DNA from: Candidatus Thorarchaeota archaeon
Lineage (GTDB): Archaea; Asgardarchaeota; Thorarchaeia; Thorarchaeales; Thorarchaeaceae
Direction: 5' to 3'
Assembly: GCA_003345555.1 (NCBI GenBank)
Contig: PRDJ01000036.1
Location: 19,809-83,808 of the forward strand
Length of the DNA: 64,000 nucleotides
The position numbers and the translations under genes were made by a program. The number at the start of each line of letters is the position of its first letter. The stretch's first letter is position 1. Under the pieces are notes generated by a model, which was given only the letters and a program-made list of their open reading frames with translations, was not told where the DNA came from and ran no database searches. Of the stretch, positions 2,445-60,828 are shown piece after piece.

Positions 2445-4631
2445 GTGGTGCTGAGAGAGTTCACCTACAAGCTTCCAGTCTTGAACAAGGGATACGCAGG
2501 ACAGACTCTGTACGTAGATTTGAGCGACAACGCCATATCAATCAAACCTGTAGACGAGAAGATGAAAGACACGTTTACTGGTGGCAAGGGCTTCGACCTA
2601 TGGCTGATGTGGAACAGCCTGCCGATGGACAAGGTAGTAAAGTGGAACGACCCAGAGAATGAGATCTGCATTGCCTCAGGTCCCCTCGGGGGTGTGCCTC
2701 TTTACCCGGGGGCGGGAAAGTCGCTTGTGACGACTATATCGCCGCAGACGGGGCTAATCATGGATAGCAATGTCGGCGGGTACTTCGGGCCGATGCTCAA
2801 GTTCGCCGGCTTTGACGCACTGGAAATACAGGGCAAGAGTCAGAAGGATGTCTATCTTTTCATCGATGGTGATGAAGGTAGAATACAGATACTGGAAGCG
2901 GGCGACTTGCCCACGTACGCCCACGAGATAATGAAGATTCTTACTGAACGTCACACTGGCAAAACGGGTATGGACGTATCGGTTGTTACCACGGGTCCAG
3001 CCGCAGAACATGTCATGATGAGCTGTCTGAACTTCTCTTGGTACGACACATGGCGGAAACAGCCCCATTACAAACAGGCGGGTAGAGGAGGCACAGGGAC
3101 AGTCTTCAGGGACAAGAAGATCAAGGCAATCGTTGTCAAGAAAGCTAGGATTACTCCGGACATGAATAACCCCGCAGACCTTGAGGCGTTGAAGGCCGTA
3201 GGAAGAGAACACAGTCAAGAAATCATCCAGCTCGACCCGAAGCAGAACCGAATGCGTGTCATCGGCACAGGTCATCTGCCTTCAATAATGAATGAGTTTG
3301 ATTTACTGCCGACACGAAACTTCAGAACTGGCAGCGACCCTGAAGCCAAAGGTCTCTCAGGCGAAGTCTGGGAGAAGATGTTCACCAACACGGGCAAAGG
3401 TTGGGACGGGTGCTGGATTTCATGCGCCATCAATTGCTCCCACTGCATAGAAGGCTTCGTGCCAACAACTGGTCCTTTCAAGGGCAAGACTGTCACAGTA
3501 GACGGACCTGAGTACGAAACGATCGCTGGCTGTGGGTCCAATCTTGCTATCTTCAATGCGAGAGATGTTGCAGAGATTAACTTCTACTGCGATACTTATG
3601 GCATCGACACTATCAGCTTTGGCACAACAATGGGCTTTGTTATGGAGCTGTTTGAGGGAGGTCAAATAACGGACAAGGCAACGGGAGGACACAAGCTCAA
3701 GTGGGGAGCGGTGCCTGAAGTCCTGTCTGTTCTTCACGAAATGGCGACGGGTAATGGTTTTGGCGGTCAGCATTTTGGAAAGGGGATTCGGTACCTCAAA
3801 GGCTACTTTGCTGAGAAATTCAAGGTCGACAAGTCGCTCATGCAGGATATCGGCATGGAGCACAAAGGTCTCGAGTACAGTGAATACGTCACGAAAGAAA
3901 GCCTTGCTCAGCAGGGAGGGTACGGTCTTACACTCAAGGGGCCGCAGCACGACGAGGCATGGCTCATATTCATGGATCAAGTCCACAAGTATCTCCCAAC
4001 CTTTGAGAAGAAGGCAGAAGCACTTCACTACTTCCCGATGTGGCGCACATGGTTCGGCATTAATGGGCTGTGCAAGTTGCCTTGGAATGATGTTGTCCCA
4101 GTAGACAACAAGCAGACCTCAGAGCCTGGAAAGGTTCCAGGTCACGTCACATTCTACGCTAGGTTCTTCGAGGCCATGACGGGAAAGAAAGTGACCGGTG
4201 CTGACTTGATTACTCAGTCGGAACGCGTATACAACTTCCAGAGAGTCTTCAACCTCCGTCAGGGTCACGGCCTGAGAGCGGATGACTCGGGGACACCATA
4301 CCGCAGCATGGGACCAGTGACTGACTGGGAATACGAGAGCAGACAGGAGAGGTATGACAAGCAGCTCAAGGAGCAAGTCGGAATTGACCCTTCAAGTATG
4401 AGCACCACTGACAAACGAAAGAGACTCAGAGAGTTCAGAGAGGAGCAGTACAAGCTTCTCACCGACGCCGCGTACAAGAGACGTGGTTGGACTAGGAACG
4501 GGGTACCAACTCTGGAGAAGGTCAAAGCATTGGGAATTGACTTCCCGTCGGTCGTCAAGTTCGTTTCCAAGTTTGAAAGTACTGAGCCGCTGAAACAGAG
4601 TCTGCCCAAGAACGACTCAGCTTGGAAGTAA
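2445..4631 (+). CDS. aor: Aldehyde:ferredoxin oxidoreductase (tungsten-containing AOR family), 728 aa
   Basis: N-terminal AOR_N-like 'EICIASGPLGGVPLYPGAGKSLV...DSNVGGYFGPMLKFAGFDALEIQGKS' and 'DTISFGTTMGFVMELFEGG'. Full-length AOR architecture plus a ~100-aa C-terminal extension. Confidence 0.85.
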   Translation: MVLREFTYKLPVLNKGYAGQTLYVDLSDNAISIKPVDEKMKDTFTGGKGFDLWLMWNSLPMDKVVKWNDPENEICIASGPLGGVPLYPGAGKSLVTTISPQTGLIMDSNVGGYFGPMLKFAGFDALEIQGKSQKDVYLFIDGDEGRIQILEAGDLPTYAHEIMKILTERHTGKTGMDVSVVTTGPAAEHVMMSCLNFSWYDTWRKQPHYKQAGRGGTGTVFRDKKIKAIVVKKARITPDMNNPADLEALKAVGREHSQEIIQLDPKQNRMRVIGTGHLPSIMNEFDLLPTRNFRTGSDPEAKGLSGEVWEKMFTNTGKGWDGCWISCAINCSHCIEGFVPTTGPFKGKTVTVDGPEYETIAGCGSNLAIFNARDVAEINFYCDTYGIDTISFGTTMGFVMELFEGGQITDKATGGHKLKWGAVPEVLSVLHEMATGNGFGGQHFGKGIRYLKGYFAEKFKVDKSLMQDIGMEHKGLEYSEYVTKESLAQQGGYGLTLKGPQHDEAWLIFMDQVHKYLPTFEKKAEALHYFPMWRTWFGINGLCKLPWNDVVPVDNKQTSEPGKVPGHVTFYARFFEAMTGKKVTGADLITQSERVYNFQRVFNLRQGHGLRADDSGTPYRSMGPVTDWEYESRQERYDKQLKEQVGIDPSSMSTTDKRKRLREFREEQYKLLTDAAYKRRGWTRNGVPTLEKVKALGIDFPSVVKFVSKFESTEPLKQSLPKNDSAWK

Positions 4632-4717
4632 TTCTACTTGGTCAATTGGCCATAGGCCGACTCTCGCGGACGACTTCCTGAGTAGAGGAAATCCGGTTTC
4701 TACAATGCGGTCTGTGC

Positions 4718-6145
4718 TTATTCAGATCGTCTTGTCCGAATCATGAGAAACACAGGTATGGCTATGACGATGATAGACCAAGAGAACCACATGGCGAGTC
4801 CGAGGTCTTGAATTGGGAATCCATCGATAATCCCGTTTGTTGTGTTGGAATAGGCCCGAGGATAATGATCCACACTGCCAGCATCGCCTGGAATCTGATA
4901 GACACCAAAAAGCGAATAGTCGCTCCATTGGTTGCCGGTATCTACGCCATTGTCCCAGCTATTTCCAGAACCATCGTCCCGTGCGTTCACGCCATTATAG
5001 TGAATCACGTTGCTGAACAAACGACAGCCCGACACACCGTATCCCAACGCGATTCCGTAGCCGGAGTTCTGCCATACGTTGTTTCCAGTTACTAGCCCGT
5101 TGATTGTCTGGACGCCTCCCCATCCATCTATGAACCCGATGCCGCCTCCATTATTGTATATGCTGTTGTCAATTATGGTTGCATTCGGTCCGAGAATCAT
5201 AATCCCGTCGAATGAATTCGAGTAGACAATGTTATTCTGAAGAACGCAGTTGTCCGACCGGTTTATCAGTACTCCAGAGTACATATTGCCGTAGAATTCA
5301 CCCTCTGCAACCATGACACCGCCGCAGGTGAGGACGACGACACCATATTCTGAGCCGTTTACATTACAGGACAACAAATAACAATCATAACACGCCATCA
5401 GCAGTATACCATATGGAACTCCCCATAGGTTGCCGCCAGATAGGGTGACGGATGTGCAATTGACCAGAATCAGCTGACCGAACGAACTAGCATCGATGTT
5501 CTCGCCCCAAACGCCCGAGAAATAGCCAAGCGGGCGTCCCATGACTGTGTTATCGGAAAATGCATGCTGAAAACCGGCGTCATCCACCGAATCTAGCAAG
5601 ACCCCTCCGTTTGTCAAGATGTTCCTAGTAAAGGTGCAATTGTAGCTGTCTTTGACCACTACAACATCACGGGACCCCTCGATAAGATTCGAATCAAGGA
5701 TGCAATCGCGGGCGTAGTAGAATTCGACTCCTATGTATACCGATTGAACAACGCAACCTTCAATGCATCCATTCGAAGTGTTGCTGAGAATCACGCATGG
5801 GCCGTAGGAGGTAGTAAGCAGACTGCAATTCCGAACTAGAAAACTGACCGACACTTGGCTGATGCTTAAGCAATAGGACGGGTCTTGAATAGTATAGTTC
5901 TCTATCAGATAGGGGTTTGAAGCAGATCCATTTCCCGACCAACCCTCGACAACCGACTGATTGGCAAAATCGTCGTTCCCGCATATGATTATGTTGCTGT
6001 GAGGTTGTTGTGCTTGGTTGAAGAGGGGTGACAGATTCGCTGTTCGACGAATTGGAGGACGCCCTGAGATTGAAATCAGCATCATGAGAATCGATAGTAA
6101 GGCTATAGTACGCCCTTTCAATTGCTTCCTCCTCCGCAGCTTCAA
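4718..6145 (-). CDS. Secreted right-handed parallel beta-helix (NosD/pectin-lyase-like) surface protein with C-terminal TM anchor
   Basis: N-terminal signal peptide. Many N-x-S/T sequons. Repetitive G/N/S/V-rich beta-helix-like coils. C-terminal 'WSIIVIAIPVFLMIRTRRSE' hydrophobic helix plus basic tail. Confidence 0.6.
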   Translation of the reverse strand: MKLRRRKQLKGRTIALLSILMMLISISGRPPIRRTANLSPLFNQAQQPHSNIIICGNDDFANQSVVEGWSGNGSASNPYLIENYTIQDPSYCLSISQVSVSFLVRNCSLLTTSYGPCVILSNTSNGCIEGCVVQSVYIGVEFYYARDCILDSNLIEGSRDVVVVKDSYNCTFTRNILTNGGVLLDSVDDAGFQHAFSDNTVMGRPLGYFSGVWGENIDASSFGQLILVNCTSVTLSGGNLWGVPYGILLMACYDCYLLSCNVNGSEYGVVVLTCGGVMVAEGEFYGNMYSGVLINRSDNCVLQNNIVYSNSFDGIMILGPNATIIDNSIYNNGGGIGFIDGWGGVQTINGLVTGNNVWQNSGYGIALGYGVSGCRLFSNVIHYNGVNARDDGSGNSWDNGVDTGNQWSDYSLFGVYQIPGDAGSVDHYPRAYSNTTNGIIDGFPIQDLGLAMWFSWSIIVIAIPVFLMIRTRRSE

Positions 6146-6302
6146 GAAGATATTCGTGTAAATGGCTCTTATCCGTTTCGTTCATTCGTGGGTCATTTCG
6201 GAAGATGGCGGTGGAAATGGGCCTTAACTAATCCAGTGACTACGTGAATTGTGACGAGTTCTCAGATACAGACAGCTCGTGCGAGAGGAGCAACGGATAC
6301 TT

Positions 6303-7721
6303 TCATGACTGACTTGTTCCCAGTCGAGTCCCCTTTGTTCGAATTATGAGAAGCGCGGCTATGCCGAGAAGCGCCGCCGACGAAAGACCCCAGAGGGCGA
6401 GGGTGATTTCACCGGGAATGAAATCGGAAGGATTTGTGAGGACTGTCCCGTTAGCGTAGTGATCTATACTTATCGCGGTTCCCCCTACTTGGTAGAATCC
6501 AACATCGTAGTAATAATCATCCCACGCGTTACCCATTCCTATGCCGTCATCCCATTGGTTTCCCGAGGCATCGTCCCAAGCATTTGGCGCATTGGAATGG
6601 AACCAATTGCCGTACACTCGAAAGCCTGATACTCCATTCTGCAGCAAAATTCCATGCTTCGTATTACCGTGGATGTCGTTGTAGACCACCAAACCTCCGT
6701 ACGTTTGTACTTCTCCGTTTCCAGGAATGGCCAAAATACCGCCCTCGTTAGAGGAAATCAAGTTAGAGACGATACGCACGTTCGGACCGAGAACATCAAT
6801 GCCGAAACCCCGATTCGAGTAGATTGAGTTTGTAAAGATGAAGCAGTTGCTTGACCTGTTTATCGATAACCCCGAGTATAGATTAGAAGACAGGCTGCAG
6901 TTTGAAATCGTGACATTGCCAGAGGTCAGGATGACAACGCCATATCTCGATTGATAGGCAACACAAGACACCAACTCACAATCTTGACAGCCTACCAATA
7001 AAACGCCGTAGGGTACGTCCCGGAAGTTGCCAGTGGATACATAACAATGGTCGCTCCCGATGATGAATAGCTGACCGAATGAACTGGCATCGATGTTCCA
7101 CCCAGTGACATTGTAGAAATAGCCGAGCGGGCGGCTCACTACTGTGTTGTTAGAGAATGTGTGACGGAAGCCAGCCAAATCCGCAGAATCGAACGATATT
7201 CCACCGTTTGGAAGTACGTTGTTGGTAAATGTGCAGCTGTAGGATTCTCTGAGTGATAGGCTTTCCCGACCTCCACCAATCCAGTTGGAATTGAGAGTGC
7301 AGTTTCTGACCAAATACAATCCGACGCCAATCGCGAACGAGTTTATGATACAAAGCTCGATTACAGCATTTGAAACGTTGTTGAGACTGACACAAGGTCC
7401 ATACAGGAAGACGCTAGTAAGCCTGCATCTTCGAATCACAAAACTGACTGATACTTGGCTTATGGACAGAGCGTACTCTAGACTACTGATGGTGTAATTG
7501 TCGATAACATAAGGACTAGAAGCCGTTCCGTTTCCCTGCCACCCCTCTGTGATCGACTGACTAGTGAAATCAGCATCGCCATTGATGATTATACTGCTGT
7601 GTGACTCTTGTGCCAAGTTGAGGAATGCTAGCGTGTCCGCAGTGGGGCATTGCGGCCTCCCCAGCTGAAGTGGAACGAAGACTATAACAAGCCACGCCAC
7701 AAATAATGTTCGGGCCTTCAA
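6303..7721 (-). CDS. Tandem paralog of the 4718-6145 beta-helix surface protein (472 aa)
   Basis: About 50% identity over the whole length to the neighbouring gene, e.g. 'GNGTASSPYVIDNYTIS' vs 'GNGSASNPYLIENYTIQD'. Signal peptide and C-terminal TM anchor 'LGIAALLIIRTKGTR'. Confidence 0.6.
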   Translation of the reverse strand: MKARTLFVAWLVIVFVPLQLGRPQCPTADTLAFLNLAQESHSSIIINGDADFTSQSITEGWQGNGTASSPYVIDNYTISSLEYALSISQVSVSFVIRRCRLTSVFLYGPCVSLNNVSNAVIELCIINSFAIGVGLYLVRNCTLNSNWIGGGRESLSLRESYSCTFTNNVLPNGGISFDSADLAGFRHTFSNNTVVSRPLGYFYNVTGWNIDASSFGQLFIIGSDHCYVSTGNFRDVPYGVLLVGCQDCELVSCVAYQSRYGVVILTSGNVTISNCSLSSNLYSGLSINRSSNCFIFTNSIYSNRGFGIDVLGPNVRIVSNLISSNEGGILAIPGNGEVQTYGGLVVYNDIHGNTKHGILLQNGVSGFRVYGNWFHSNAPNAWDDASGNQWDDGIGMGNAWDDYYYDVGFYQVGGTAISIDHYANGTVLTNPSDFIPGEITLALWGLSSAALLGIAALLIIRTKGTRLGTSQS

Positions 7722-31761: not shown

Positions 31762-32274
31762 TCAGGGCAAGCCTTTCAGCCTGTCCCCGAGAGACGGCGC
31801 GTCTATCCGCGCCAACCTTAACGCAATCATCCCGAGGAAGACTACTACTGAAAGCAGAAGAGCGACATAGATCTCTGGATACTGTCCTCCACTCCGTACT
31901 GCAAAGTACAGAAAGACGGCAACGGGGACGGCAAACATCACAATGCCGCAGTCTTGTCTACTCCGGACCCGATGTGTTGTTCGCCTCAAGCAAGTAGGAC
32001 AGAGATACTTGCTTTGTCCAACATATCTGAATTCGTGGATACATTTGATGGAATAAGATTGACCACAATCGCGGCAAACCACCAATGCCGGAACATCATG
32101 ATGTACTGGGGACTGTCTGCTAGTAGTCTGAAAGGGAACGGTGACAAGGTTCCCACAGTGTTCGCATTTCGTCCTGACCGCATCTGCTGTCGGCGCATTA
32201 TTCAAAGGGCTCCCACAAAACGGACAGATGACTATATCCTTCTCCACGCTGTGCCCCATTACTTCATTGCGCAT
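31762..32274 (-). CDS. Zinc-ribbon/B-box-like membrane protein (paralog P2)
   Basis: 'ICPFCGSPL...CEHCG...CRDCGQSY...CPTC' followed by 2 TM helices. Confidence 0.5.
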   Translation of the reverse strand: MRNEVMGHSVEKDIVICPFCGSPLNNAPTADAVRTKCEHCGNLVTVPFQTTSRQSPVHHDVPALVVCRDCGQSYSIKCIHEFRYVGQSKYLCPTCLRRTTHRVRSRQDCGIVMFAVPVAVFLYFAVRSGGQYPEIYVALLLSVVVFLGMIALRLARIDAPSLGDRLKGLP

Positions 32275-34248: not shown

Positions 34249-34758
34249 TCAAGTGTCGAGACTCCCACGATGCTCCTTTGCCTTGCTCGCAACTGTAGGC
34301 ATGTTGGTGATTCTGCGCCTTTGGATGATTCCTCCTGCCAAACAATACATGCCAAGGAATAGGGACATCAGCGTTAGTGCTGCAGAATCTCCACCACCTC
34401 GGACACCCGATAACCCGACCACTAGGAACAAGACAGAGAAGCAAATCAAGAAGTAGATGCCCGGTGTAGCCTCGATGGTTGCCAGCCCTGCGCATCTTGG
34501 ACATAGGTATTCCTTAGCCCCTCCTAGTCTTTGGAACACATAGAGACACCGACCACAGAATGCTTGACCGCATCTGGTGCAGAAACCTGTCGTCAGGGCG
34601 TCTGAGTGATTCGGACATCGTTGAGTCAGTCCGGTTAGGCGGCGCGGGACTACAATCATCCCGCCGCAGTACGAGCACTTTACCTGCGTTGCGCTTGATG
34701 GCAATTCACCCTTCTGAGGTGCGCCACAGAACGGACAGACGAATGCCTCTCTCTCCAT
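34249..34758 (-). CDS. Zinc-ribbon/B-box-like membrane protein (paralog P3)
   Basis: 'MEREAFVCPFCGAP...CSYCGG...CPNHSDALTTGFCTRCGQAFCGRCLY...CPRC' plus 2 TM helices. The N-terminus is nearly identical to P1. Confidence 0.5.
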   Translation of the reverse strand: MEREAFVCPFCGAPQKGELPSSATQVKCSYCGGMIVVPRRLTGLTQRCPNHSDALTTGFCTRCGQAFCGRCLYVFQRLGGAKEYLCPRCAGLATIEATPGIYFLICFSVLFLVVGLSGVRGGGDSAALTLMSLFLGMYCLAGGIIQRRRITNMPTVASKAKEHRGSLDT

Positions 34759-34886: not shown

Positions 34887-35057
34887 TCAGACTTGGTCGG
34901 GCTCGCCTAGCATGCTGATCCTTCGTCCGCAGTTCTGACAGGAGAAGATGCGGTCAGGTCCAACCTTGTCAGGACCATAGCGATAGCTTGCACCACAGTA
35001 AAGGCACTTGACATAAACAGAATCTGCGCTTGGGAGGAACCCGTTTGTCTCCTTCAT
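34887..35057 (-). CDS. Small zinc-ribbon ORF (56 aa), homologous to the C-terminal ribbon of P1
   Basis: Manual translation MKETNGFLPSADSVYVKCLYCGASYRYGPDKVGPDRIFSCQNCGRRISMLGEPDQV. ATGA overlap with the stop of 35054-35524. Below the ORF-track length cutoff. Confidence 0.4.
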   Translation of the reverse strand: MKETNGFLPSADSVYVKCLYCGASYRYGPDKVGPDRIFSCQNCGRRISMLGEPDQV

Positions 35058-35524
35058 AATCTGCCCGAGAAGGGGATGGTTAATTGGTCCGAAGACTGCC
35101 CAGAGCCCCTCAGTAGTAGGAACAGGCCGTACACTGTGACATCGGATGGGTAATAGGCCCGTCTAGGAGGAATGAAGAAGACAGCAATCATCACGGTGAC
35201 TACACCTATGATTATTCTAGTCATGCGAGCTCGGTTCTTTGTCCTTCCCGAGCACGCTTCGCAGACATAGTTGTCCCTGAGTCTTTGATATATGTAGAGA
35301 CAGTTTTCACAGAATCTCCGACCAGACACGTCGCATGCTCCCACTGAAAGCACATCTGGATGGTTTGAACACAACTCTCTGGTTTCCGTGATATCACTGG
35401 AGAGTAGAATTGGATACCCGCAGGAACGGCATCGTGTTTGAAATGCTCCTTCGGGAGGTGTATCAACTTGAAGCGTACGATAAGAACGACAGATGATAGC
35501 CCCCTTCCTCACAGCTGTTCCCAC
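35054..35524 (-). CDS. Zinc-ribbon/B-box-like membrane protein (paralog P4), with a partly degenerate cysteine pattern
   Basis: 'CRSCG...CSNHPDVLSVGACDVSGRRFCENCLY...CEAC' plus TM helices. The first CPxCG is lost (IICRSY). Confidence 0.45.
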   Translation of the reverse strand: MGTAVRKGAIICRSYRTLQVDTPPEGAFQTRCRSCGYPILLSSDITETRELCSNHPDVLSVGACDVSGRRFCENCLYIYQRLRDNYVCEACSGRTKNRARMTRIIIGVVTVMIAVFFIPPRRAYYPSDVTVYGLFLLLRGSGQSSDQLTIPFSGRL

Positions 35525-35849: not shown

Positions 35850-36113
35850 GTGATCCCCTTGGGAAAGAAGACACTGAGTGATGTCCCATGTCCTGTATGC
35901 AAGGGCCCTGTCACTGGCGTCATAGTTGAAGAGGATTCAATTCTGAATGCCAAGAGAGTGCCGGTCATCGTCCCGGCCAAGTGCAGAAAGGGACACGCAG
36001 TGATTCTGTTCGTAGACAGGGCATTCGTCATTCGTGATGTCGAAGCAGCTGGAGATGCCGAGCAGAAGAAGAGTGCCCTTGACAAGGCTCAGTCTTGGAT
36101 GGACTCATTCTGA
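35850..36113 (+). CDS. Small zinc-ribbon-like protein. First gene of the Roadblock-GTPase operon.
   Basis: 'CPVCKG...CRKGH' (C-x2-C...C-x3-H). Ends 11 nt before the Roadblock start. Confidence 0.35.
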   Translation: MIPLGKKTLSDVPCPVCKGPVTGVIVEEDSILNAKRVPVIVPAKCRKGHAVILFVDRAFVIRDVEAAGDAEQKKSALDKAQSWMDSF

Positions 36114-36120
36114 GGGTGAA

Positions 36121-36665
36121 CGAGATGATCAAGATGGTCTACGTCATTAACGACGCTGGCGAGACGCTCGTTTCAATTCCGCTAGGCGACTTTCATGCCG
36201 ATGAAGCACTGTTTGGCGGATTCATGACTGCTATTGACATGTTCAGTCACAAGATGGCTGGAGACTCAATAAAGGAACTCATTCTCGGAAACAATCGAGT
36301 CGTCGTCGCTCGTGAAGGCGCCCATCTTCTTGTCACCGTGCATGATAAGGGGGATACCGACAGCCAAACCATCAATGCGAGAGCATGCGAGGCTTTCCGG
36401 AAACACTACGGCGGCGTTGTGACCGACGAAATGACAGATGCTATTCGCGAAGCTGTTCTCGGTACCATATCTATTCGGGGCAAGGCAGAAGATTGGGCTT
36501 CAAAGATGCTCTAGAAGGAAACGGAAATGGCGATAGAGGTATACGTTGCAGCGGAATTTCTTATGTTTGTGAGCTTGATAGCAGCTAGCTTTGCGATTGC
36601 GGGATACACTCGTCGTCGAATCAGGGAGCTGCCTGAAGAGGACAAGAAACTGGGCAAACCACTCT
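36121..36665. repeat. Segmental duplication, copy A (Roadblock gene plus 5' end of the membrane-protein gene)
   Basis: Nucleotide-level similarity to 38878-39420, starting at 'gatcaagatggtctacgt'. Confidence 0.6.
36125..36514 (+). CDS. Roadblock/LC7 (MglB-like) domain protein
   Basis: About 129 aa: 'MIKMVYVINDAGETLVSIPLGDFHADEALFGGFMTAIDMFS...LILGNNRVVVAREGAHLLVTVHDKG'. Start placed at the ATG where homology with the duplicate copy begins. Confidence 0.65.
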   Translation: MIKMVYVINDAGETLVSIPLGDFHADEALFGGFMTAIDMFSHKMAGDSIKELILGNNRVVVAREGAHLLVTVHDKGDTDSQTINARACEAFRKHYGGVVTDEMTDAIREAVLGTISIRGKAEDWASKML

Positions 36666-38005
36666 ACGCATACGCAGCTGGCACTTTCGTGATGGGCATA
36701 ACATCCTTTGCCAACTACCTAGCAGGCACGCAAGTTGTGATAGGGCCGTGGGCATGGCGCTTTTGGCCATCATACGCCTATGTCGTCTTAGCCATACTTG
36801 CCCCGGCGTTCATTTCGATAGCTGCGTTGATCGTCCTTGGGCGAGAGCATTTCATGATCCCGACCCTTTTTGCATTGGTGCTTGTTAGCTACGTTTGGAT
36901 ATTGCCAATGATACCAAACCCAATCGATGCTCGTGATGCGACTGCAGATGTGTCCTCCGTCATGTACATACCCGCAGTCCTGCTATTCGGGTACATATTG
37001 GCCAAAACGAGAAAAGCCACCAGTCTCGGGCTTTTCTACGTGGTCACATTCTATCCTCTCTATCGGTTGACTGTTATCGGACTGTCTGCCGGGCCGGTGG
37101 ATCTCAGCATCGTCTTTCTTGCCCTGCGGCTGCTGGCGCCAGTAATTGCCGCCGTCGCATTCCAAGTACGTGATATAGGAATATCATTCGAACTGGCGGG
37201 GTATGGGATGGCATACGCGCTTATTGCATTCTGGCTTTCGTATCTCATGATATCCCCTGTTACCGACCCTGTGCTGATTGCATCTCTCACTCTGATTGCT
37301 CTCGGATCGACAATCGGATTTGGTACGGGTGCATACACGTATGCCCGCTGGAAGAAGAACAGGCTCGGAGCAACATTCGTTCTATTCCTGTCGTTTACTT
37401 TCACAACATGGGCGTTCATACTGGTAGCCCTTCAGGGCCTAGGTCTTGCAACAGCAATCTACTACACCTATGCTTACATTTTCCTGACCTTCATTGCCCT
37501 CATGTGTTTCAATATGGCCGCGTATCTTGCTCTGGAATGGAGGTCGCTTCTCTTGTTGCCCGTCCTGATGATACTGCCGCTATTGTTCTTCTTGTCGATC
37601 CAATACCCTAGTGACCCACGCCTTAATCCGTTCTTCATCCCGGCCATCAGTATAACAGGTGTCGTTGCAGCGATTGTACCTGTTGCGTTGTATCTTTACC
37701 TGTGGCAAAGAATGAGGCAAGCAAAGGCGCCAGCCGCGAGCAGACCCCTGTTGTTGGCCACTGGAATCCTTGGATTGACTCTTGCTTTGGCTGCAGGCCC
37801 CATTACAATGGGTACAGAGGTTCTGAATGTGGCAAATCCAATCAGCGGAGTTCTCACATTCATCGCTTTTCTAGCATGGTGGTTGGCAGTTACTGGTAGG
37901 AACGAACGTTTCATGAAATGGTTGCACTCCACATTCCTGAAACCCAAGCCTGCTCCGTCCACGCCTCCGCCAGCGGGAGCTGCCTCTCAGCCCGGTGGTG
38001 CCTGA
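36527..38005 (+). CDS. Polytopic membrane protein (about 13 TM), unknown function. Lies between the Roadblock and GTPase genes.
   Basis: 492 aa, highly hydrophobic, Pro/Ala-rich C-terminal tail. The stop is 2 nt before the GTPase ATG. Confidence 0.55.
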   Translation: MAIEVYVAAEFLMFVSLIAASFAIAGYTRRRIRELPEEDKKLGKPLYAYAAGTFVMGITSFANYLAGTQVVIGPWAWRFWPSYAYVVLAILAPAFISIAALIVLGREHFMIPTLFALVLVSYVWILPMIPNPIDARDATADVSSVMYIPAVLLFGYILAKTRKATSLGLFYVVTFYPLYRLTVIGLSAGPVDLSIVFLALRLLAPVIAAVAFQVRDIGISFELAGYGMAYALIAFWLSYLMISPVTDPVLIASLTLIALGSTIGFGTGAYTYARWKKNRLGATFVLFLSFTFTTWAFILVALQGLGLATAIYYTYAYIFLTFIALMCFNMAAYLALEWRSLLLLPVLMILPLLFFLSIQYPSDPRLNPFFIPAISITGVVAAIVPVALYLYLWQRMRQAKAPAASRPLLLATGILGLTLALAAGPITMGTEVLNVANPISGVLTFIAFLAWWLAVTGRNERFMKWLHSTFLKPKPAPSTPPPAGAASQPGGA

Positions 38006-38007
38006 AG

Positions 38008-38538
38008 ATGTCTGCCAGAATCCCCGTATTCAAGACTGTTCTGATCGGGGAGGGAGGGGTGGGCAAGACCAGTATCACGCTGCGGTACACGGAGAATCGT
38101 TTCGAAGATAGTATGCGCATGACGGTTGGTGCTAACTTCGCTTCCAAGAAGGTGACTATTGGCAGCACACAGATGACCATCATGCTTTGGGATCTGGGAG
38201 GACAGCCCCGATTTCATGACGTGGTACAGGACTACTTCAAGGGAAGCAAGTTCGGAATCGCAGTCTATGACGTCAATCGACTCTACACTTTGGAGCGGCT
38301 TGAGGAATGGATTCATCGATTGAGAGAAGTTGCGCCGGACTGTGACCTCCTCATTGTCGGTAACAAAATAGACGAGCGAACCAATGACGGTGGAGTAGCC
38401 CTTGCCGAAGGGATTGCGTTCGCATCCAAGTTCGGCGCTGACTGCATTGAGGTTTCAGCTAAGACAGGTCAGGGAGTAAATGAGATTTTCGAGACGGCTG
38501 CAAGGCTTCTCATCAAGAAGTACATACAGAAGGTATAG
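38008..38538 (+). CDS. Rab/Ras-like small GTPase (176 aa)
   Basis: G1 'LIGEGGVGKTS'. Switch I 'RMTVGANF'. G3 'LWDLGGQPRF'. 'VYDVN'. G4 'GNKID'. G5 'SAKTGQGV'. Confidence 0.8.
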   Translation: MSARIPVFKTVLIGEGGVGKTSITLRYTENRFEDSMRMTVGANFASKKVTIGSTQMTIMLWDLGGQPRFHDVVQDYFKGSKFGIAVYDVNRLYTLERLEEWIHRLREVAPDCDLLIVGNKIDERTNDGGVALAEGIAFASKFGADCIEVSAKTGQGVNEIFETAARLLIKKYIQKV

Positions 38539-38886
38539 CATCTTACCAATAGAGCGTAATTCAAGCTAATAGTAAGGCTCCTACCTTGTGTCCCGTCCCT
38601 CACATCATTGACACACAATTTGCTAATATATCGCTCGTTCATGGAAAGCCGAAAGGCCCCACTTCTCCATTGTGGAGTCGCCAGAAGACCAAGAACGATA
38701 TGTGGGTTGAAGGATCGCAGTCGGTATTCATAAGTAGGAAGTCGCTAGATAGTCTTCTCAGGAGAGAGCATCAACAATCACCCTCACTGACTCCGACAGC
38801 TATCTATCCCCACATCAGAAGCAAGGGGATGTCCTCAGCGTTCAATCAGAACCCATCTTGCTCTGAAGGTGATTAGTCTGATCAAG

Positions 38887-39267
38887 ATGGTCTACGTTAT
38901 CAACGAAGCTGGTGAGACATTGTCCGCCATTGCTCTCGGCAACTTCCATGCTGACGACGCGTTGTTCGGGGGTTTCATGTCTGCTATAGATATGTTCTCT
39001 CAGAAGATGGCGGGAGATGTCATAAAGGAGCTCGTCCTTGGTAATGACAGAGTCCTAGTTGCCCGTGAAGGAGTCTATCTTCTAGTCACGATACATGACA
39101 AAGGAGATACTGACAGCCAACTTGTGAGCCGAAAGGTATGCGAAGCGTTCCGTAAGCATTTTGCCGGTCTCGTAACTGAGGAGATGACACAAGCCATCCG
39201 TGAAGCAGCCTTAGGCAGTGAATCTGCAGGCAGAAAAGCGAAGGATTGGGCGTCGAGGATACTTTAG
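38887..39267 (+). CDS. Roadblock/LC7 domain protein, duplicate of 36125-36514
   Basis: 'MVYVINEAGETLSAIALGNFHADDALFGGFMSAIDMFS...' About 80% identical to copy 1. Confidence 0.6.
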   Translation: MVYVINEAGETLSAIALGNFHADDALFGGFMSAIDMFSQKMAGDVIKELVLGNDRVLVAREGVYLLVTIHDKGDTDSQLVSRKVCEAFRKHFAGLVTEEMTQAIREAALGSESAGRKAKDWASRIL

Positions 39268-39273
39268 GAGAAA

Positions 39274-39420
39274 ATGGAGATGGCAAAAAGACATACGTTG
39301 CGGCAGAGCTAATTATGTTTGACGTCTGATAGCGGCTGCCTTTGCGATAGTACAATACACTCGTCGTCGGATTAAGAAGCTTACCGAGGAAAACAGGAAA
39401 CTCGACAGACCTCTTCTTCT
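39274..39420 (+). pseudogene. Decayed 5' fragment of a duplicated membrane-protein gene (homolog of the 36527 gene)
   Basis: Nucleotide similarity to 36527-36665 ('atacgttgc.gc.ga...atgtttg...acactcgtcgtcg.at.a'), but the reading frame is broken (MEMAKRHTLRQS*). Confidence 0.35.
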
Positions 39421-39637
39421 CGCGTTGGGCGCAATTGCCTTCCTTCCAGCAATGCGTGGAGGCAGTATTTCGAATCCGGTCTCTAGCATCATAGTAGTCA
39501 TTGCTTTCCCATGCTGATGGCTAGTGGTCACAGAAAAGCTGGAAGCTCTCACAGAAGATGATATCTTACCGGGCATCTCTAGTGGGCTCGTGTCAGGGAT
39601 ATTTCCCCCGATACTACTCTAGATTACCGGCAGGCAC

Positions 39638-42287: not shown

Positions 42288-44048
42288 CTACCTAGACTTT
42301 GTCCTGAAGTACAGCATTGCTATAATTAGCGACGACAGCAGGCCTAGAGCTAGCAATAAGCCCCAAAGATAACCAGGGCTCTCCTCCTGTAACATAGACG
42401 TGACGACGACTGTCATCCATGGAGTTGTATGGACATTCTTCATGGAAGAATTATCGACCGCGATAACCCTGTAGACGACAATAGATCCTACAGCATATTC
42501 ACCCAGTGAGGCCGAGTACAAATCTCTCCCTTGAGACTGCATCGTTGCGTTCACTGTATGGTTTGTGTCGAGTCCCCATTCGACTCTTATGCTGCTTATG
42601 TTATTGATGTCCCAGCAGTAGACTTGGACGGTCAAGTTGTTGGCGTAGCCTGTGGTGAATGACTGGATGACTGCGAAGCCACTAACCGTCGGGATATGCG
42701 CGTCGGCGGTCACGTTAACGGTCGTGACTGTTACAGCACTCTGGTTGAAGAAATCAGTCAACGTCATGTTGTAAACATGAATACCTACTGAGAGTCGATC
42801 TACGTTAACACTCAGGTTCTCGCCTCGCCACGTACCGTTCATTAGCACAGCACCGTCGCGAGTGAGGTTGTACGACCGCGGGTTGCTCTCATCTGCACTC
42901 CAGTTCAGATAGTTGCCCTTGTAGCCTTCTTCATAACCAAGATAGGCCTTTCCTGTTACAACGGGAGCCCGAATGTCTTTGTAGATTGTGACATTCAATG
43001 AGTCAGTGTTGTTGCGTCCGTACTTATCAAAAAGCAGTATTGTGAATGTGTAGTTACCCAAGAAGATCGAATCCAAGCTTGTTGTGACGTCGTTACCTTC
43101 AGGATCGATGAAAGTCCATGAAGCCATAGTGATGTTTGTGGGGCTATGAAAAGCAGAGACATTACCGTAGCTACTGTTGGTATAGAGTGTTGTCACTCTG
43201 ACTGTGTAGTTCTTGGGATTGCTGTCATACACATGCCAGACTATCTTGTGTCCCCTTGAGCCAAACTCGAAAGTGAGATCATCGGGCTGGGTAACGGTCG
43301 GAGGAGTCACGTCCAGATAGACAGTGACGTTCACCGAGCTGGTGGCATTGTGTTTGAGAGTGTCGTTGACAAACAGGGTATAGACATACCAGTGAGTTGC
43401 ATTCAAGCCGTCCACGTTTATTGATATGTTCGCACCATAGAACTGTCCAGACTTTACAACCGTACGATTACTGGTGGTTTCGTTAGACGTTCTGGTTACA
43501 TTGTAGAAATCGGGGTTGCTCTCCGTGATATTCCATGTCACAGTATGTCCGAAGCTACCCTCTTCGTAGCTGAAGTTGGCAGGGGCACTTATGATGGGCG
43601 ATGTTGTATCGGCAATCAGTGTTACAAGAACCTCATCCGACACGGACTCATTGCTGGTGTTGAACACCTTGCAGACAAAGACGAATAGTGCGGGCAAAGT
43701 ACTCACTAGCTTCTCAGTGTAGAGGTGGTTCAGAAGCACTTCAATGGCTCCACCTGACCAGGAGCCCGATTTGTGAATCGTACCGTTTCTCGTTACAGTG
43801 TAGTTCTTTGGCGATGGGTCCGTAGAATTCCACACGATTTTCTTGTTTACTGTACCATTCTCGTAAGTCATATCAGAAGGACTGCTGATGCTGGGAGCCG
43901 CTGGAGCGAATTGACCCTCTGGCTTCAGATTGCTAACTAGAGAACTGAAGGACGATGAGACACAGGGTGACAGAACCAACCAAAACACTGTCATGACCAT
44001 GATGAATCTGCTGTGATGGCTCGAAAGCATTGGTGCACCATCCGCCAT
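42288..44048 (-). CDS. Secreted surface protein with 4-5 tandem ~100-aa Ig-like repeats and a C-terminal TM anchor
   Basis: Signal peptide. Repeats of the pattern 'P.V..P.D..YE.GS.GH.I.W...DSNP..Y.V.R'. Many NxS/T sequons. C-terminus 'LWGLLLALGLLSSLIIAMLYFRTKSR'. Confidence 0.6.
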   Translation of the reverse strand: MADGAPMLSSHHSRFIMVMTVFWLVLSPCVSSSFSSLVSNLKPEGQFAPAAPSISSPSDMTYENGTVNKKIVWNSTDPSPKNYTVTRNGTIHKSGSWSGGAIEVLLNHLYTEKLVSTLPALFVFVCKVFNTSNESVSDEVLVTLIADTTSPIISAPANFSYEEGSFGHTVTWNITESNPDFYNVTRTSNETTSNRTVVKSGQFYGANISINVDGLNATHWYVYTLFVNDTLKHNATSSVNVTVYLDVTPPTVTQPDDLTFEFGSRGHKIVWHVYDSNPKNYTVRVTTLYTNSSYGNVSAFHSPTNITMASWTFIDPEGNDVTTSLDSIFLGNYTFTILLFDKYGRNNTDSLNVTIYKDIRAPVVTGKAYLGYEEGYKGNYLNWSADESNPRSYNLTRDGAVLMNGTWRGENLSVNVDRLSVGIHVYNMTLTDFFNQSAVTVTTVNVTADAHIPTVSGFAVIQSFTTGYANNLTVQVYCWDINNISSIRVEWGLDTNHTVNATMQSQGRDLYSASLGEYAVGSIVVYRVIAVDNSSMKNVHTTPWMTVVVTSMLQEESPGYLWGLLLALGLLSSLIIAMLYFRTKSR

Positions 44049-44213: not shown

Positions 44214-45128
44214 TTGATGCCCAAGGCCATCTATGCAATATGGTGGGACCCCAACCTCGGTCCTTTTCTCGGCCGGTCATACCCAGAGAATGATCCGCTG
44301 ACGTCCGAAGAAGCTGTAGTCATCTTCATGGGGCATGGACTGCAACAAGAAGCGAAGGTCGGCTACACAAAGTTGGCAAAGGGGTTGGTGGTATCTTATC
44401 TTGACAGCCCAAACTGTATCGCGGTACTACTGGATGAGAACGATGATCCCTCAGTTGTCGAAAGGAATCTGCTTAGACTCGTCGGCCGTATCAATTTCAA
44501 CAGCAGCAAATGGGATGCGGAGATAACGCGTGCCTTTCTTCTGTTGCAGGAACTCATCGCAGAGACATCTGGCCAAGAGCTGCTTTCCAATCCCCACGTT
44601 ACCAGACTTGTCGAAGACATGGCTACGGGTAGAGTGTCAGCCCTGGTTCCTAGGCACGTGCTAAGGGCAACTGCAAAATACCCAAAGGCTTCGGACTACT
44701 TGGGACCCGATGAGGAAGAGGTCTCAAGACTGCTTAAGGATCTAGAACGTGCAGGCCACTTGGTTCCGAAGACATATGGAAGAAGAGTTGAATGCAGACA
44801 GTGTGGAGGCACCGAAGTCACTCTCGAACTCGCGTGCCCTTCGTGTGGGAGTAATGACATCTACAAAGTCTATCTGGTGTTCTGCCCCAAGTGCGGTAAT
44901 AGGACTCAGACAGTACTCGTAGATGACTTGACCGAGGTACGGTGCCAACAATGCAAGCAGCCTGCAAAGGTGTCAGAACTGTCTGTCATAGACGTGGAGC
45001 TGCTCTGCAAAGGGTGTGGGCAGGCGACAAACGATCCCAAAATTGTACTGTCTTGTGCGAATTGTGGAAAGCACATGACAAACACTGATCTTTTAGGCGG
45101 GACAGGGTTGGCATACTATCCGGCGTAG
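44214..45128 (+). CDS. Roadblock/longin-like N-domain protein with a wHTH-like middle region and four C-terminal zinc ribbons
   Basis: N-terminus 'AIYAIWWDPNLGPFLGRSYPEND'. C-terminus 'CRQCGG...CPSCGS...CPKCGN...CQQC...CKGCGQ...CANCGK'. Confidence 0.4.
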   Translation: MMPKAIYAIWWDPNLGPFLGRSYPENDPLTSEEAVVIFMGHGLQQEAKVGYTKLAKGLVVSYLDSPNCIAVLLDENDDPSVVERNLLRLVGRINFNSSKWDAEITRAFLLLQELIAETSGQELLSNPHVTRLVEDMATGRVSALVPRHVLRATAKYPKASDYLGPDEEEVSRLLKDLERAGHLVPKTYGRRVECRQCGGTEVTLELACPSCGSNDIYKVYLVFCPKCGNRTQTVLVDDLTEVRCQQCKQPAKVSELSVIDVELLCKGCGQATNDPKIVLSCANCGKHMTNTDLLGGTGLAYYPA

Positions 45129-59595: not shown

Positions 59596-60828
59596 GTGAC
59601 TCTCTTGCCGGGTTACGTCGAGGTCCGTGATAAGGGCATTCTAAGAAAGAAGATACCGACAAGCAACAGATCATTTGAAAACGTGTGCTCCGATCTTGAG
59701 CGCTTCTTCAAGGACGCAGGAAAGAAGCTGCCGCCCGGCGTTGTAAGAGAAGCTCTACAGAGAATAGGTGTTCCTCAGGTTAAGATGATAATCTCACAGG
59801 CGGAGCCACTAGAAGAATCACAAGCAAAGGTTGTCAAGGAGATTTCAGCCTCGGTTGAGGCTAGGAAGAAATCAAAGAGAAAGCCGAAGGTAGCCAAGAG
59901 TACAAGTAAGACAGAGGAAGTTCCTGAAGCGGCCAAGAAAGAACCAGCAGGTGACATATCTGGCATTGAGTATCACGACGTTGAAGAAGCTTTGAGCGTA
60001 GTGGAATCCCTGAGTGATTCGTTTCTCTCATCCAAGTCCAAGGATGCATCCCGTGCAACTCCTGACAAGGGTAAAATCAGTATCGAAGTCGAGGGAACCG
60101 AAGAGATAGTCGGTGCTCCCCGCTTGCGGGCGGCCATGCCAGAACAAGTGCCGCATGCGATCAAGGCCACTGCTGAACAGTTTCCGCCCTCACCGACGGA
60201 GTCCGGCAGACCCAAGGAGGCGGCTCAGTCTCCCACACGCATACCCAAGACGCAGGTGATTGCAAAGGCCCTGATTCTGGGGGAAGAAGGCGTAGGCAAG
60301 TCATCATTGATAGCAAAGGGAGGCCTCAAGCCGCTCGAGTCAAGCCCTGAGGCAGAGAAGAGACCGTATGTCACGGAGAAAGTGATTGAGGTTGACAACT
60401 ACAGAGTCAGGCTGCAGGCATGGCTATTTGACGCAGCTTCGGCCTCAAGAGTGACAAGAAAGGCGTTCTATGAAGATACTGGTCTCGTCATCATTGTGTA
60501 TAGCACATCAGACCGTTGGTCATTCGAGAGCATTGATTTCTGGCTCAAGGAGAGCATATCGGCCTCTGGGATACGACCTCCTGTGGTTATCGTCGGGAAC
60601 AAGACCGACGTTCGAGCCAACTCACCCCTCGTGGACAGGGAGCCTCCGGTATCACCAGAAGAGGGATTGAAGTTGGCACATGAAATAGCCTCGAAGCTCG
60701 CATCGGGGCAGAAGACTCATCCAGTAGCCTTCATTGAGACCTCGTGCCTCACTGGCCAAGGTGTTGAGGACCTGTTTAGGATGGCTGCAGAGCTTTTCGT
60801 CAAGTCAATCAATCGACCGAAAGCATAG
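59596..60828 (+). CDS. Divergent Ras-like small GTPase with a ~200-aa Lys/Glu-rich N-terminal extension
   Basis: G1 'LGEEGVGKSS'. G4 'GNKTD'. G5 'ETSCLTGQGV'. G3 is degenerate ('WLFDAASA', no Gly or Gln). GTG start. Confidence 0.6.
   Translation: MTLLPGYVEVRDKGILRKKIPTSNRSFENVCSDLERFFKDAGKKLPPGVVREALQRIGVPQVKMIISQAEPLEESQAKVVKEISASVEARKKSKRKPKVAKSTSKTEEVPEAAKKEPAGDISGIEYHDVEEALSVVESLSDSFLSSKSKDASRATPDKGKISIEVEGTEEIVGAPRLRAAMPEQVPHAIKATAEQFPPSPTESGRPKEAAQSPTRIPKTQVIAKALILGEEGVGKSSLIAKGGLKPLESSPEAEKRPYVTEKVIEVDNYRVRLQAWLFDAASASRVTRKAFYEDTGLVIIVYSTSDRWSFESIDFWLKESISASGIRPPVVIVGNKTDVRANSPLVDREPPVSPEEGLKLAHEIASKLASGQKTHPVAFIETSCLTGQGVEDLFRMAAELFVKSINRPKA

Follow-up and report, generated by a model that had tools for sequence, protein, structure and literature searches.

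The 64,000-nt stretch of DNA analysed here (hereafter the window), from a metagenome-assembled genome (MAG) of Candidatus Thorarchaeota within the Asgard archaea, carries an operon-like cassette of four genes for a putative zinc-ribbon miniprotein, a longin-fold protein, a polytopic membrane protein and a Rab-like small GTPase. The co-conservation of this operon, a complete Rab-like GTPase that is free of a lipid anchor, its longin partner, the conserved cytoplasmic face of the membrane protein and the related tails of the two small proteins lead us to favour, with moderate confidence, the interpretation that this Thorarchaeota-specific operon encodes a membrane-docked small-GTPase switch. The cassette is a lineage-specific variant of a theme that combines a membrane sensor, a longin or Roadblock protein and a small GTPase, and it comprises three unannotated protein families, one of which is a double seven-helix protein that resembles receptors in its modelled fold.

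An NCBI protein of a Candidatus Thorarchaeota MAG has the same sequence as the 492-aa membrane protein, which identifies the window as Asgard archaeal DNA; the operon-like cassette thus lies in a Thorarchaeota genome, in the Asgard setting proposed by a first-pass annotation of the sequence. That annotation had also described four plus-strand genes separated by 11, 12 and 2 nt, and our re-reading of the open reading frame (ORF) positions agreed throughout: the zinc-ribbon gene at 35850-36113 (87 aa as called), the longin-fold gene at 36125-36514 (129 aa from its ATG, within a longest ORF from TTG 36095), the membrane protein gene at 36527-38005 (492 aa, 15 transmembrane (TM) helices) and the GTPase gene at 38008-38538 (176 aa from its ATG, within a longest ORF from 37918). 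Searches of Pfam, NCBIfam and PADLOC gave no family match for the zinc-ribbon, longin-fold and membrane proteins, and none of the four proteins matched a PADLOC defence-system model. An anti-phage defence system was considered and dropped, given the empty PADLOC and NCBIfam results for three of the four proteins.

When 5.8 billion proteins were searched with a word index, the longin-like protein had 15 close homologues and the membrane protein 12. Profile searches extended the longin-like family to 136 homologues, and an exhaustive HMMER search with the membrane-protein profile against 1.84 billion cluster representatives found only 56. All organism-named homologues from these protein searches belonged to Candidatus Thorarchaeota. 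A scan of 185,579 species genomes, which used the longin alignment because the membrane-protein alignments held no stretch conserved enough, identified 23 loci: 17 labelled Thorarchaeota, 1 Hermodarchaeota, 2 'Promethearchaeota' and 3 'uncultured archaeon'. As judged from homology, the cassette appears to be restricted to Thorarchaeota.

Synteny was analysed by scanning the six-frame ORFs of all loci with hidden Markov models (HMMs) of the four proteins, a check that the first-pass annotation had called for, and the membrane gene proved to be kept with the GTPase-longin pair. The full order zinc ribbon-longin-membrane protein-GTPase was found on one strand in 18 of the 23 species-level loci; three loci end at a contig edge, with remaining genes that fit the cassette order, and two (L032 and L033) have the zinc-ribbon, longin and GTPase genes without the membrane gene, an arrangement also seen in one extra copy in L022. 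In all 21 cases the longin and membrane genes are 10-13 nt apart, and in 16 of 17 the membrane and GTPase genes are 1-14 nt apart. Upstream, the window and its close relatives alike have an ABC transporter, and downstream they have GTP cyclohydrolase II and FrhB. In relatives with 43-44% identical longin proteins, the cassette lies between AsnC/acetyltransferase and GDPD genes, and a divergent paralogous clade, with membrane proteins ~22-24% identical to that of the window, has all four components in the order GTPase-zinc ribbon-longin-membrane protein. Co-occurrence that outlasts both relocation and rearrangement is strong evidence for a functional linkage among the four genes.

The four encoded proteins

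The GTPase has a complete set of G1-G5 motifs (GEGGVGKT, TVGANF, WDLGGQ, YDV, NKID and SAK), and every element of the full Ras/Rab set claimed in the first-pass annotation could be re-read in the sequence. Its Pfam Ras score (1e-39) is far stronger than those for Arf (7e-12) and Gtr1_RagA (2.3e-08), and it matches the NCBIfam family TIGR00231 small_GTP at 1.7e-20. The top 60 PDB sequence matches are all Rabs, led by Rab21 (1.6e-33) and a crystallised Thorarchaeota Rab (7ezb, 2.3e-31) and including Sec4, Rab18, Rab5, Rab2 and Rab11 among the further top matches. By similarity to known proteins the GTPase is classed as Rab-like, and the families that the first-pass annotation had named as the case against this assignment, MglA and Era, were both rejected. 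The G3 motif WDLGGQ retains the Asp and the catalytic Gln, which argues that the GTPase is not MglA-like, the neighbouring partner gene has no Robl_LC7 match, and the Era match is negligible. A C-terminal Cys for geranylgeranylation is absent both from the window protein (...LLIKKYIQKV) and from all orthologues examined, which excludes a Rab-type lipid anchor.

The 129-aa protein had been assigned at first to the Roadblock/LC7 proteins, of the MglB/GAP or Ragulator type (GAP, GTPase-activating protein), and this assignment had to be abandoned. No Pfam match to Roadblock/LC7 (PF03259) was obtained at E <= 0.1 for the window protein or within a set of 30 family members; nine of this set matched Fuz_longin_1, the first longin domain of Fuz, Mon1 and HPS1 (best E 0.0016), and one matched Sybindin (0.035), all below the Pfam cut-offs. 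The AlphaFold2 model (predicted local distance difference test, pLDDT, 77; predicted template modelling score, pTM, 0.72) consists of strands (E) and helices (H) at E2-8, E14-19, H27-43, E50-54, E57-64, E67-74, H80-94 and H101-128. This order of strand-strand-helix-strand-strand-strand-helix-helix is the longin arrangement; compared with the Roadblock connectivity of alpha-beta-beta-alpha-beta-beta-beta(-alpha), the N-terminal helix is missing and there are two C-terminal helices, connectivity being the criterion that separates the two folds (PMC10933270). The best structural matches of the model are longin domains over the whole domain, covering 105-116 residues, as against 86-96 for Roadblocks. 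When the longin-like alignments were used as profiles against PDB sequences, the outcome was no match or noise (Med22, ATP synthase gamma). As modelled, the protein has longin topology within the longin/Roadblock superfold and is not a member of the Roadblock/LC7 family.

In eukaryotes, the longin fold serves as the GTPase-binding platform of Rab and Rag guanine nucleotide exchange factors (GEFs) and GAPs, and for longin and Roadblock platforms the main activity is that of a GEF, less often that of a GAP. Longin topology is compatible with a role of the 129-aa protein as GEF, GAP or adaptor, and a GEF is slightly favoured by its weak, below-threshold sequence match to the first longin domain of Mon1/Fuz/HPS1, the one that binds Rab. 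A 10-residue N-terminal extension of the longin ORF, from TTG 36095, was considered and rejected as non-coding; most orthologues begin with MIQ or MIK after a gap to the zinc-ribbon gene.

The first gene of the cassette encodes a putative zinc ribbon, as its ligand motif suggests. The window protein has CPVC...CRKGH (Cys3-His), and the pattern CPxC ... C-x2-G-H, with its two metal-binding knuckles, is kept in every orthologue examined and in the divergent clade. The original call of a zinc-ribbon gene can accordingly stand, with a different start: GTG 35850, from which the gene had been read, falls within a Shine-Dalgarno-like aGTGAt, and the most likely start is TTG 35859 (MGKK..., 84 aa), because orthologues begin with M-G-K-K at this point, from ATG or TTG, after GGTGA/AGTGAT.

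The two small proteins have related, Trp-containing tails of the form [KR]AxxW[AM]xx[LF]-COOH. In the longin-like proteins the tail is an invariant WASKML-COOH that follows [KR]A-x-x, and in the zinc-ribbon proteins it is [D]KA-x-x-WM[DE]x-F/L-COOH (...DKAQSWMDSF-COOH in the window copy). Trp-containing tails are found in both proteins of the divergent clade as well (...DWAKSVF and ...GWFETL). Residues 115-124, just before the tail of the longin protein, form the lowest-confidence stretch of its model. We infer from these sequences that the tails are putative docking peptides, and the two homologous halves of the membrane protein make it an attractive guess that one tail would dock to each of them.

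The model of the membrane protein (pLDDT 78.8, pTM 0.72), built on a shallow alignment of 12 sequences, has 15 hydrophobic helices and an amphipathic C-terminal helix, in place of the 13 TM helices counted in the first-pass annotation. Predicted cytoplasmic loops contain 24 Lys and Arg residues and outer loops 2, which indicates an N-out/C-in topology. Profile-profile comparison of the two halves paired TM1-6 (residues 4-178) with TM9-14 (residues 247-419) at a probability of 97.5%, E 8e-12 and a score of 79, as compared with scores of 15 for a reversed profile and 10-14 for eight column-shuffled profiles. The offset of eight helices places both repeats in the same orientation, and the protein can be described as a tandem duplication in which a seven-helix bundle is followed by a linker helix (TM8) and a second seven-helix bundle. 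The modelled bundles resemble receptors of the G-protein-coupled receptor (GPCR) type at the level of fold only. A Foldseek search of the model against the PDB found nothing significant (matches to LYCHOS/GPR155, at E 0.14 and TM-score ~0.27, were not used), and none of 28 family members matched a seven-TM Pfam family or any other Pfam family.

In a family-wide alignment of these 28 sequences, 38 of the 40 most conserved positions fall in cytoplasmic loops or the cytoplasmic halves of helices, and mean information is higher on the cytoplasmic side (2.32 vs 1.56 bits; Mann-Whitney p 7e-29). The surface under constraint is thus the one turned towards the soluble members of the cassette, the GTPase and the two small proteins. 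Close orthologues share a Pro/Ser/Thr/Ala-rich C-terminal tail with a terminal G-G/R-A/L; the ...GG[A/L] C-terminus was rejected as a feature of the family, being missing from more distant orthologues.

Proposed function and competing explanations

In the switch that we favour, the 15-TM protein would be the membrane anchor of the complex and probably its sensor. The longin and zinc-ribbon proteins would bind to its cytoplasmic face, with their [KR]AxxW[AM]xx[LF]-COOH tails, one for each half, as possible docking elements, and this pair, as GEF and/or GAP, would determine which nucleotide the GTPase carries. Once loaded with GTP, the GTPase could engage effectors from a membrane position that it owes to the complex and not to a lipid. 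Several observations weigh against this interpretation. The membrane gene is absent from the extra copy in L022 and from L032 and L033, and the GTPase gene from second copies in L001 and L005 and from L003/L004; such copies indicate that the components can be uncoupled. In addition, the longin-family sequence signal of the 129-aa protein lies under the Pfam thresholds, and no signal, ligand or effector is identifiable.

A bolder version, which we consider unlikely though worth stating, would make the tandem seven-helix protein a true receptor, whose outer half binds a signal and whose cytoplasmic face, together with the docked small proteins, controls exchange on the GTPase; the outer half is the variable half of the protein. 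If correct, Asgard archaea would have a receptor-plus-G-protein signalling unit that is made up of eukaryote-like folds and needs no heterotrimeric G proteins, and this unit would be a possible model for the first coupling of membrane receptors to Ras-superfamily switches. Similarly improbable, in our estimation, is the identification of the 15-TM protein as a transporter or transceptor in place of a receptor-type sensor; the GTPase-longin pair would then regulate transport, or report on the availability of substrate in the manner of SLC38A9 with Rag-Ragulator. Parallel internal repeats in polytopic proteins are typical of secondary transporters, the weak and non-significant Foldseek matches include LYCHOS, MATE and MFS proteins, and one source gives the label 'Na+/proline symporter' to a fragment from a distant member of the family.

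Two further explanations fare worse. A polarity or GAP module of the MglA/MglB kind, with a Roadblock/LC7 homodimer as the GAP and the membrane protein as a mere anchor, seems very unlikely in view of the absence of Robl_LC7 matches in all 30 family members, the longin topology of the 129-aa model (with no N-terminal helix and two C-terminal helices, by the criterion of PMC10933270), the shorter structural alignments to Roadblocks than to longins (86-96 residues vs 105-116) and the Rab-like GTPase, which keeps the G3 Asp, unlike MglA; moreover, in the Wuichet survey eukaryote-like (Rup) GTPases are never coupled to MglB. Adjacency by chance, or through local synteny of close relatives with no joint function, can draw on the shared flanks of close relatives, and part of the conservation does reflect shared ancestry. 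This explanation is effectively refuted by the recurrence of the cassette with other flanks (AsnC/acetyltransferase, GDPD), by the permuted order in the divergent clade, whose membrane proteins are so distant from that of the window, and by the gaps of 1-14 nt kept throughout. The membrane-docked switch is the reading that we retain for the cassette.

Paralogous copies and neighbouring genes

The window also holds the remains of a second, tandem cassette at 38869-39515. Its longin-fold paralogue (38869-39267, plus strand), recognised by homology search and HMM scan in the ORF listing, is intact and ends in WASRIL in place of the otherwise invariant WASKML. Three-frame translation, with HMM matches in two frames, revealed a frameshifted and truncated pseudogene of the membrane protein at ~39285-39515 on the same strand, and no zinc-ribbon or GTPase gene of the second cassette is recognisable within 38869-39515. 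In related genomes a second cassette also lies directly downstream, complete in L006 and without the GTPase gene in L001 and L005, and all three loci have intact counterparts of the decayed membrane gene. Upstream of the two complete cassettes of L006, at 4363-5384, are called genes of 139 aa and 204 aa with no cassette HMM match.

The GTPase gene comes first (GTPase-zinc ribbon-longin-membrane protein) in the divergent paralogous cassettes of L035 (864-6473), where two cassettes stand back to back on opposite strands, and of L036 (3650-6377). Their longin-like proteins are longer, at 141-147 aa, and end in ...DWAKSVF or ...EWGEKVF. L003/L004 carry, at 5701-7416, a 471-aa paralogue of the membrane protein in a locus with no HMM match to the longin, zinc-ribbon or GTPase proteins, so that the membrane protein can occur without a GTPase. 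This paralogue is flanked by unrelated genes (MTTB methyltransferase, CoA transferases), and in L004 an uncharacterised 95-aa gene lies 12 nt upstream of it.

Upstream of the cassette in the window and divergent from it is a minus-strand run of small zinc-ribbon, double-zinc-ribbon and B-box-like genes (31762-32274, 34249-34758, 34887-35057 and 35054-35524), two of which encode C-terminal hydrophobic segments. Close relatives such as L001 have in its place a similar series of small genes without Pfam matches, and more distant cassette loci have unrelated genes there. Downstream, a plus-strand gene for a TackOD1 output-domain protein (44214-45128) adjoins a minus-strand gene for a 586-aa protein without a Pfam match (42288-44048), a pair that close relatives also have on that side of the cassette. 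A second Ras-family GTPase domain (Pfam Ras 9e-18) occupies residues 224-399 of a 410-aa protein encoded at 59596-60828 on the plus strand, the N-terminal ~220 aa of which have no Pfam match.

Comparison with known systems

The nearest prokaryotic analogue of the cassette is the actinobacterial conservon, and the relationship is one of analogy and not of homology. Conservons (CvnA-D, Mfp) encode a histidine-kinase-like membrane sensor, a Roadblock protein, a small accessory protein and a small GTPase (PMC4316618, PMC13343842, PMC13621833), and the accessory protein is now thought to be a GEF (PMC4316618, PMC13343842). Both systems are four-gene operons that join a membrane protein, a protein of the Roadblock/longin superfold, a second small protein and a Ras-superfamily GTPase, and for both a membrane-associated G-protein switch is proposed. 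However, no conservon component is homologous at the family level to any of the four cassette proteins, none of which matched the Pfam families of CvnA-D (histidine kinase, MglB, DUF742 and MglA types). Where the conservons of Actinomycetota have a histidine-kinase-like CvnA, an MglB-type CvnB, a DUF742 CvnC and an MglA-type CvnD, the Asgard cassette has a tandem seven-helix bundle without a histidine-kinase domain, a longin-type partner, a zinc ribbon and a Rab-like GTPase with DxxGQ.

Among eukaryotes, longin or Roadblock platforms are recruited by polytopic membrane proteins in Rag-Ragulator-SLC38A9 and in PQLC2-C9orf72/SMCR8, and Mon1-Ccz1 and TRAPP are longin Rab GEFs. The logic of the cassette would parallel that of the first two systems, again by analogy and not homology. 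The longin protein of the cassette differs from these platforms, including LYCHOS-GATOR1, Mon1-Ccz1 and TRAPP, in being a single domain of 129 aa without a DENN domain, a tri-longin architecture or TRAPP partners, and profile searches of PDB sequences detected no sequence homology between it and those eukaryotic proteins. The membrane protein is likewise unrelated in sequence to SLC38A9, PQLC2 and LYCHOS, the Foldseek match to the last of these being non-significant. With GPCR-type receptors it shares, in the model, a seven-helix bundle with the N-terminus outside and the C-terminus inside; it differs in having two bundles in one chain with an extra joining helix, and in a genomic partner that is a monomeric Rab-like GTPase and not a heterotrimeric G protein. 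Should the membrane protein be a receptor-like regulator, the cassette would be a case, among the archaea related to eukaryotes, of a Rab-like switch governed by a membrane receptor.

Asgard archaea encode dozens of eukaryote-like small GTPases along with longin and Roadblock proteins, and the pairing of regulators with GTPases is largely unclear, as are the routes by which GTPases without a lipid anchor reach membranes. These repertoires have been described (PMC10933270), and genome layout is usually uninformative about GTPase-regulator pairings; in MK-D1, GTPase genes generally lie outside operons with Roadblock or longin genes (Tran et al., PMC10933270). The cassette is an exception, in which the genome names one GTPase together with its longin-fold, zinc-ribbon and membrane partners, and given the layout in MK-D1, its strict conservation makes it useful for matching a GTPase to its partners. 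It thereby offers a defined and testable GTPase-regulator-membrane set in an Asgard lineage, with four proteins that can be co-expressed. Full-text literature searches for this combination of genes found no description of it. The closest Asgard counterpart is an operon of a LAMTOR1-like protein, a Rab-like GTPase and a DENN protein, present in most Asgard lineages (Liu et al., bioRxiv 10.1101/2020.10.19.343400), which also joins a Rab-like GTPase to a Roadblock-superfamily protein. That widespread operon includes DENN and no membrane protein, whereas the cassette described here combines its GTPase and longin protein with a zinc ribbon and a 15-TM protein, and appears to be found in Thorarchaeota only.

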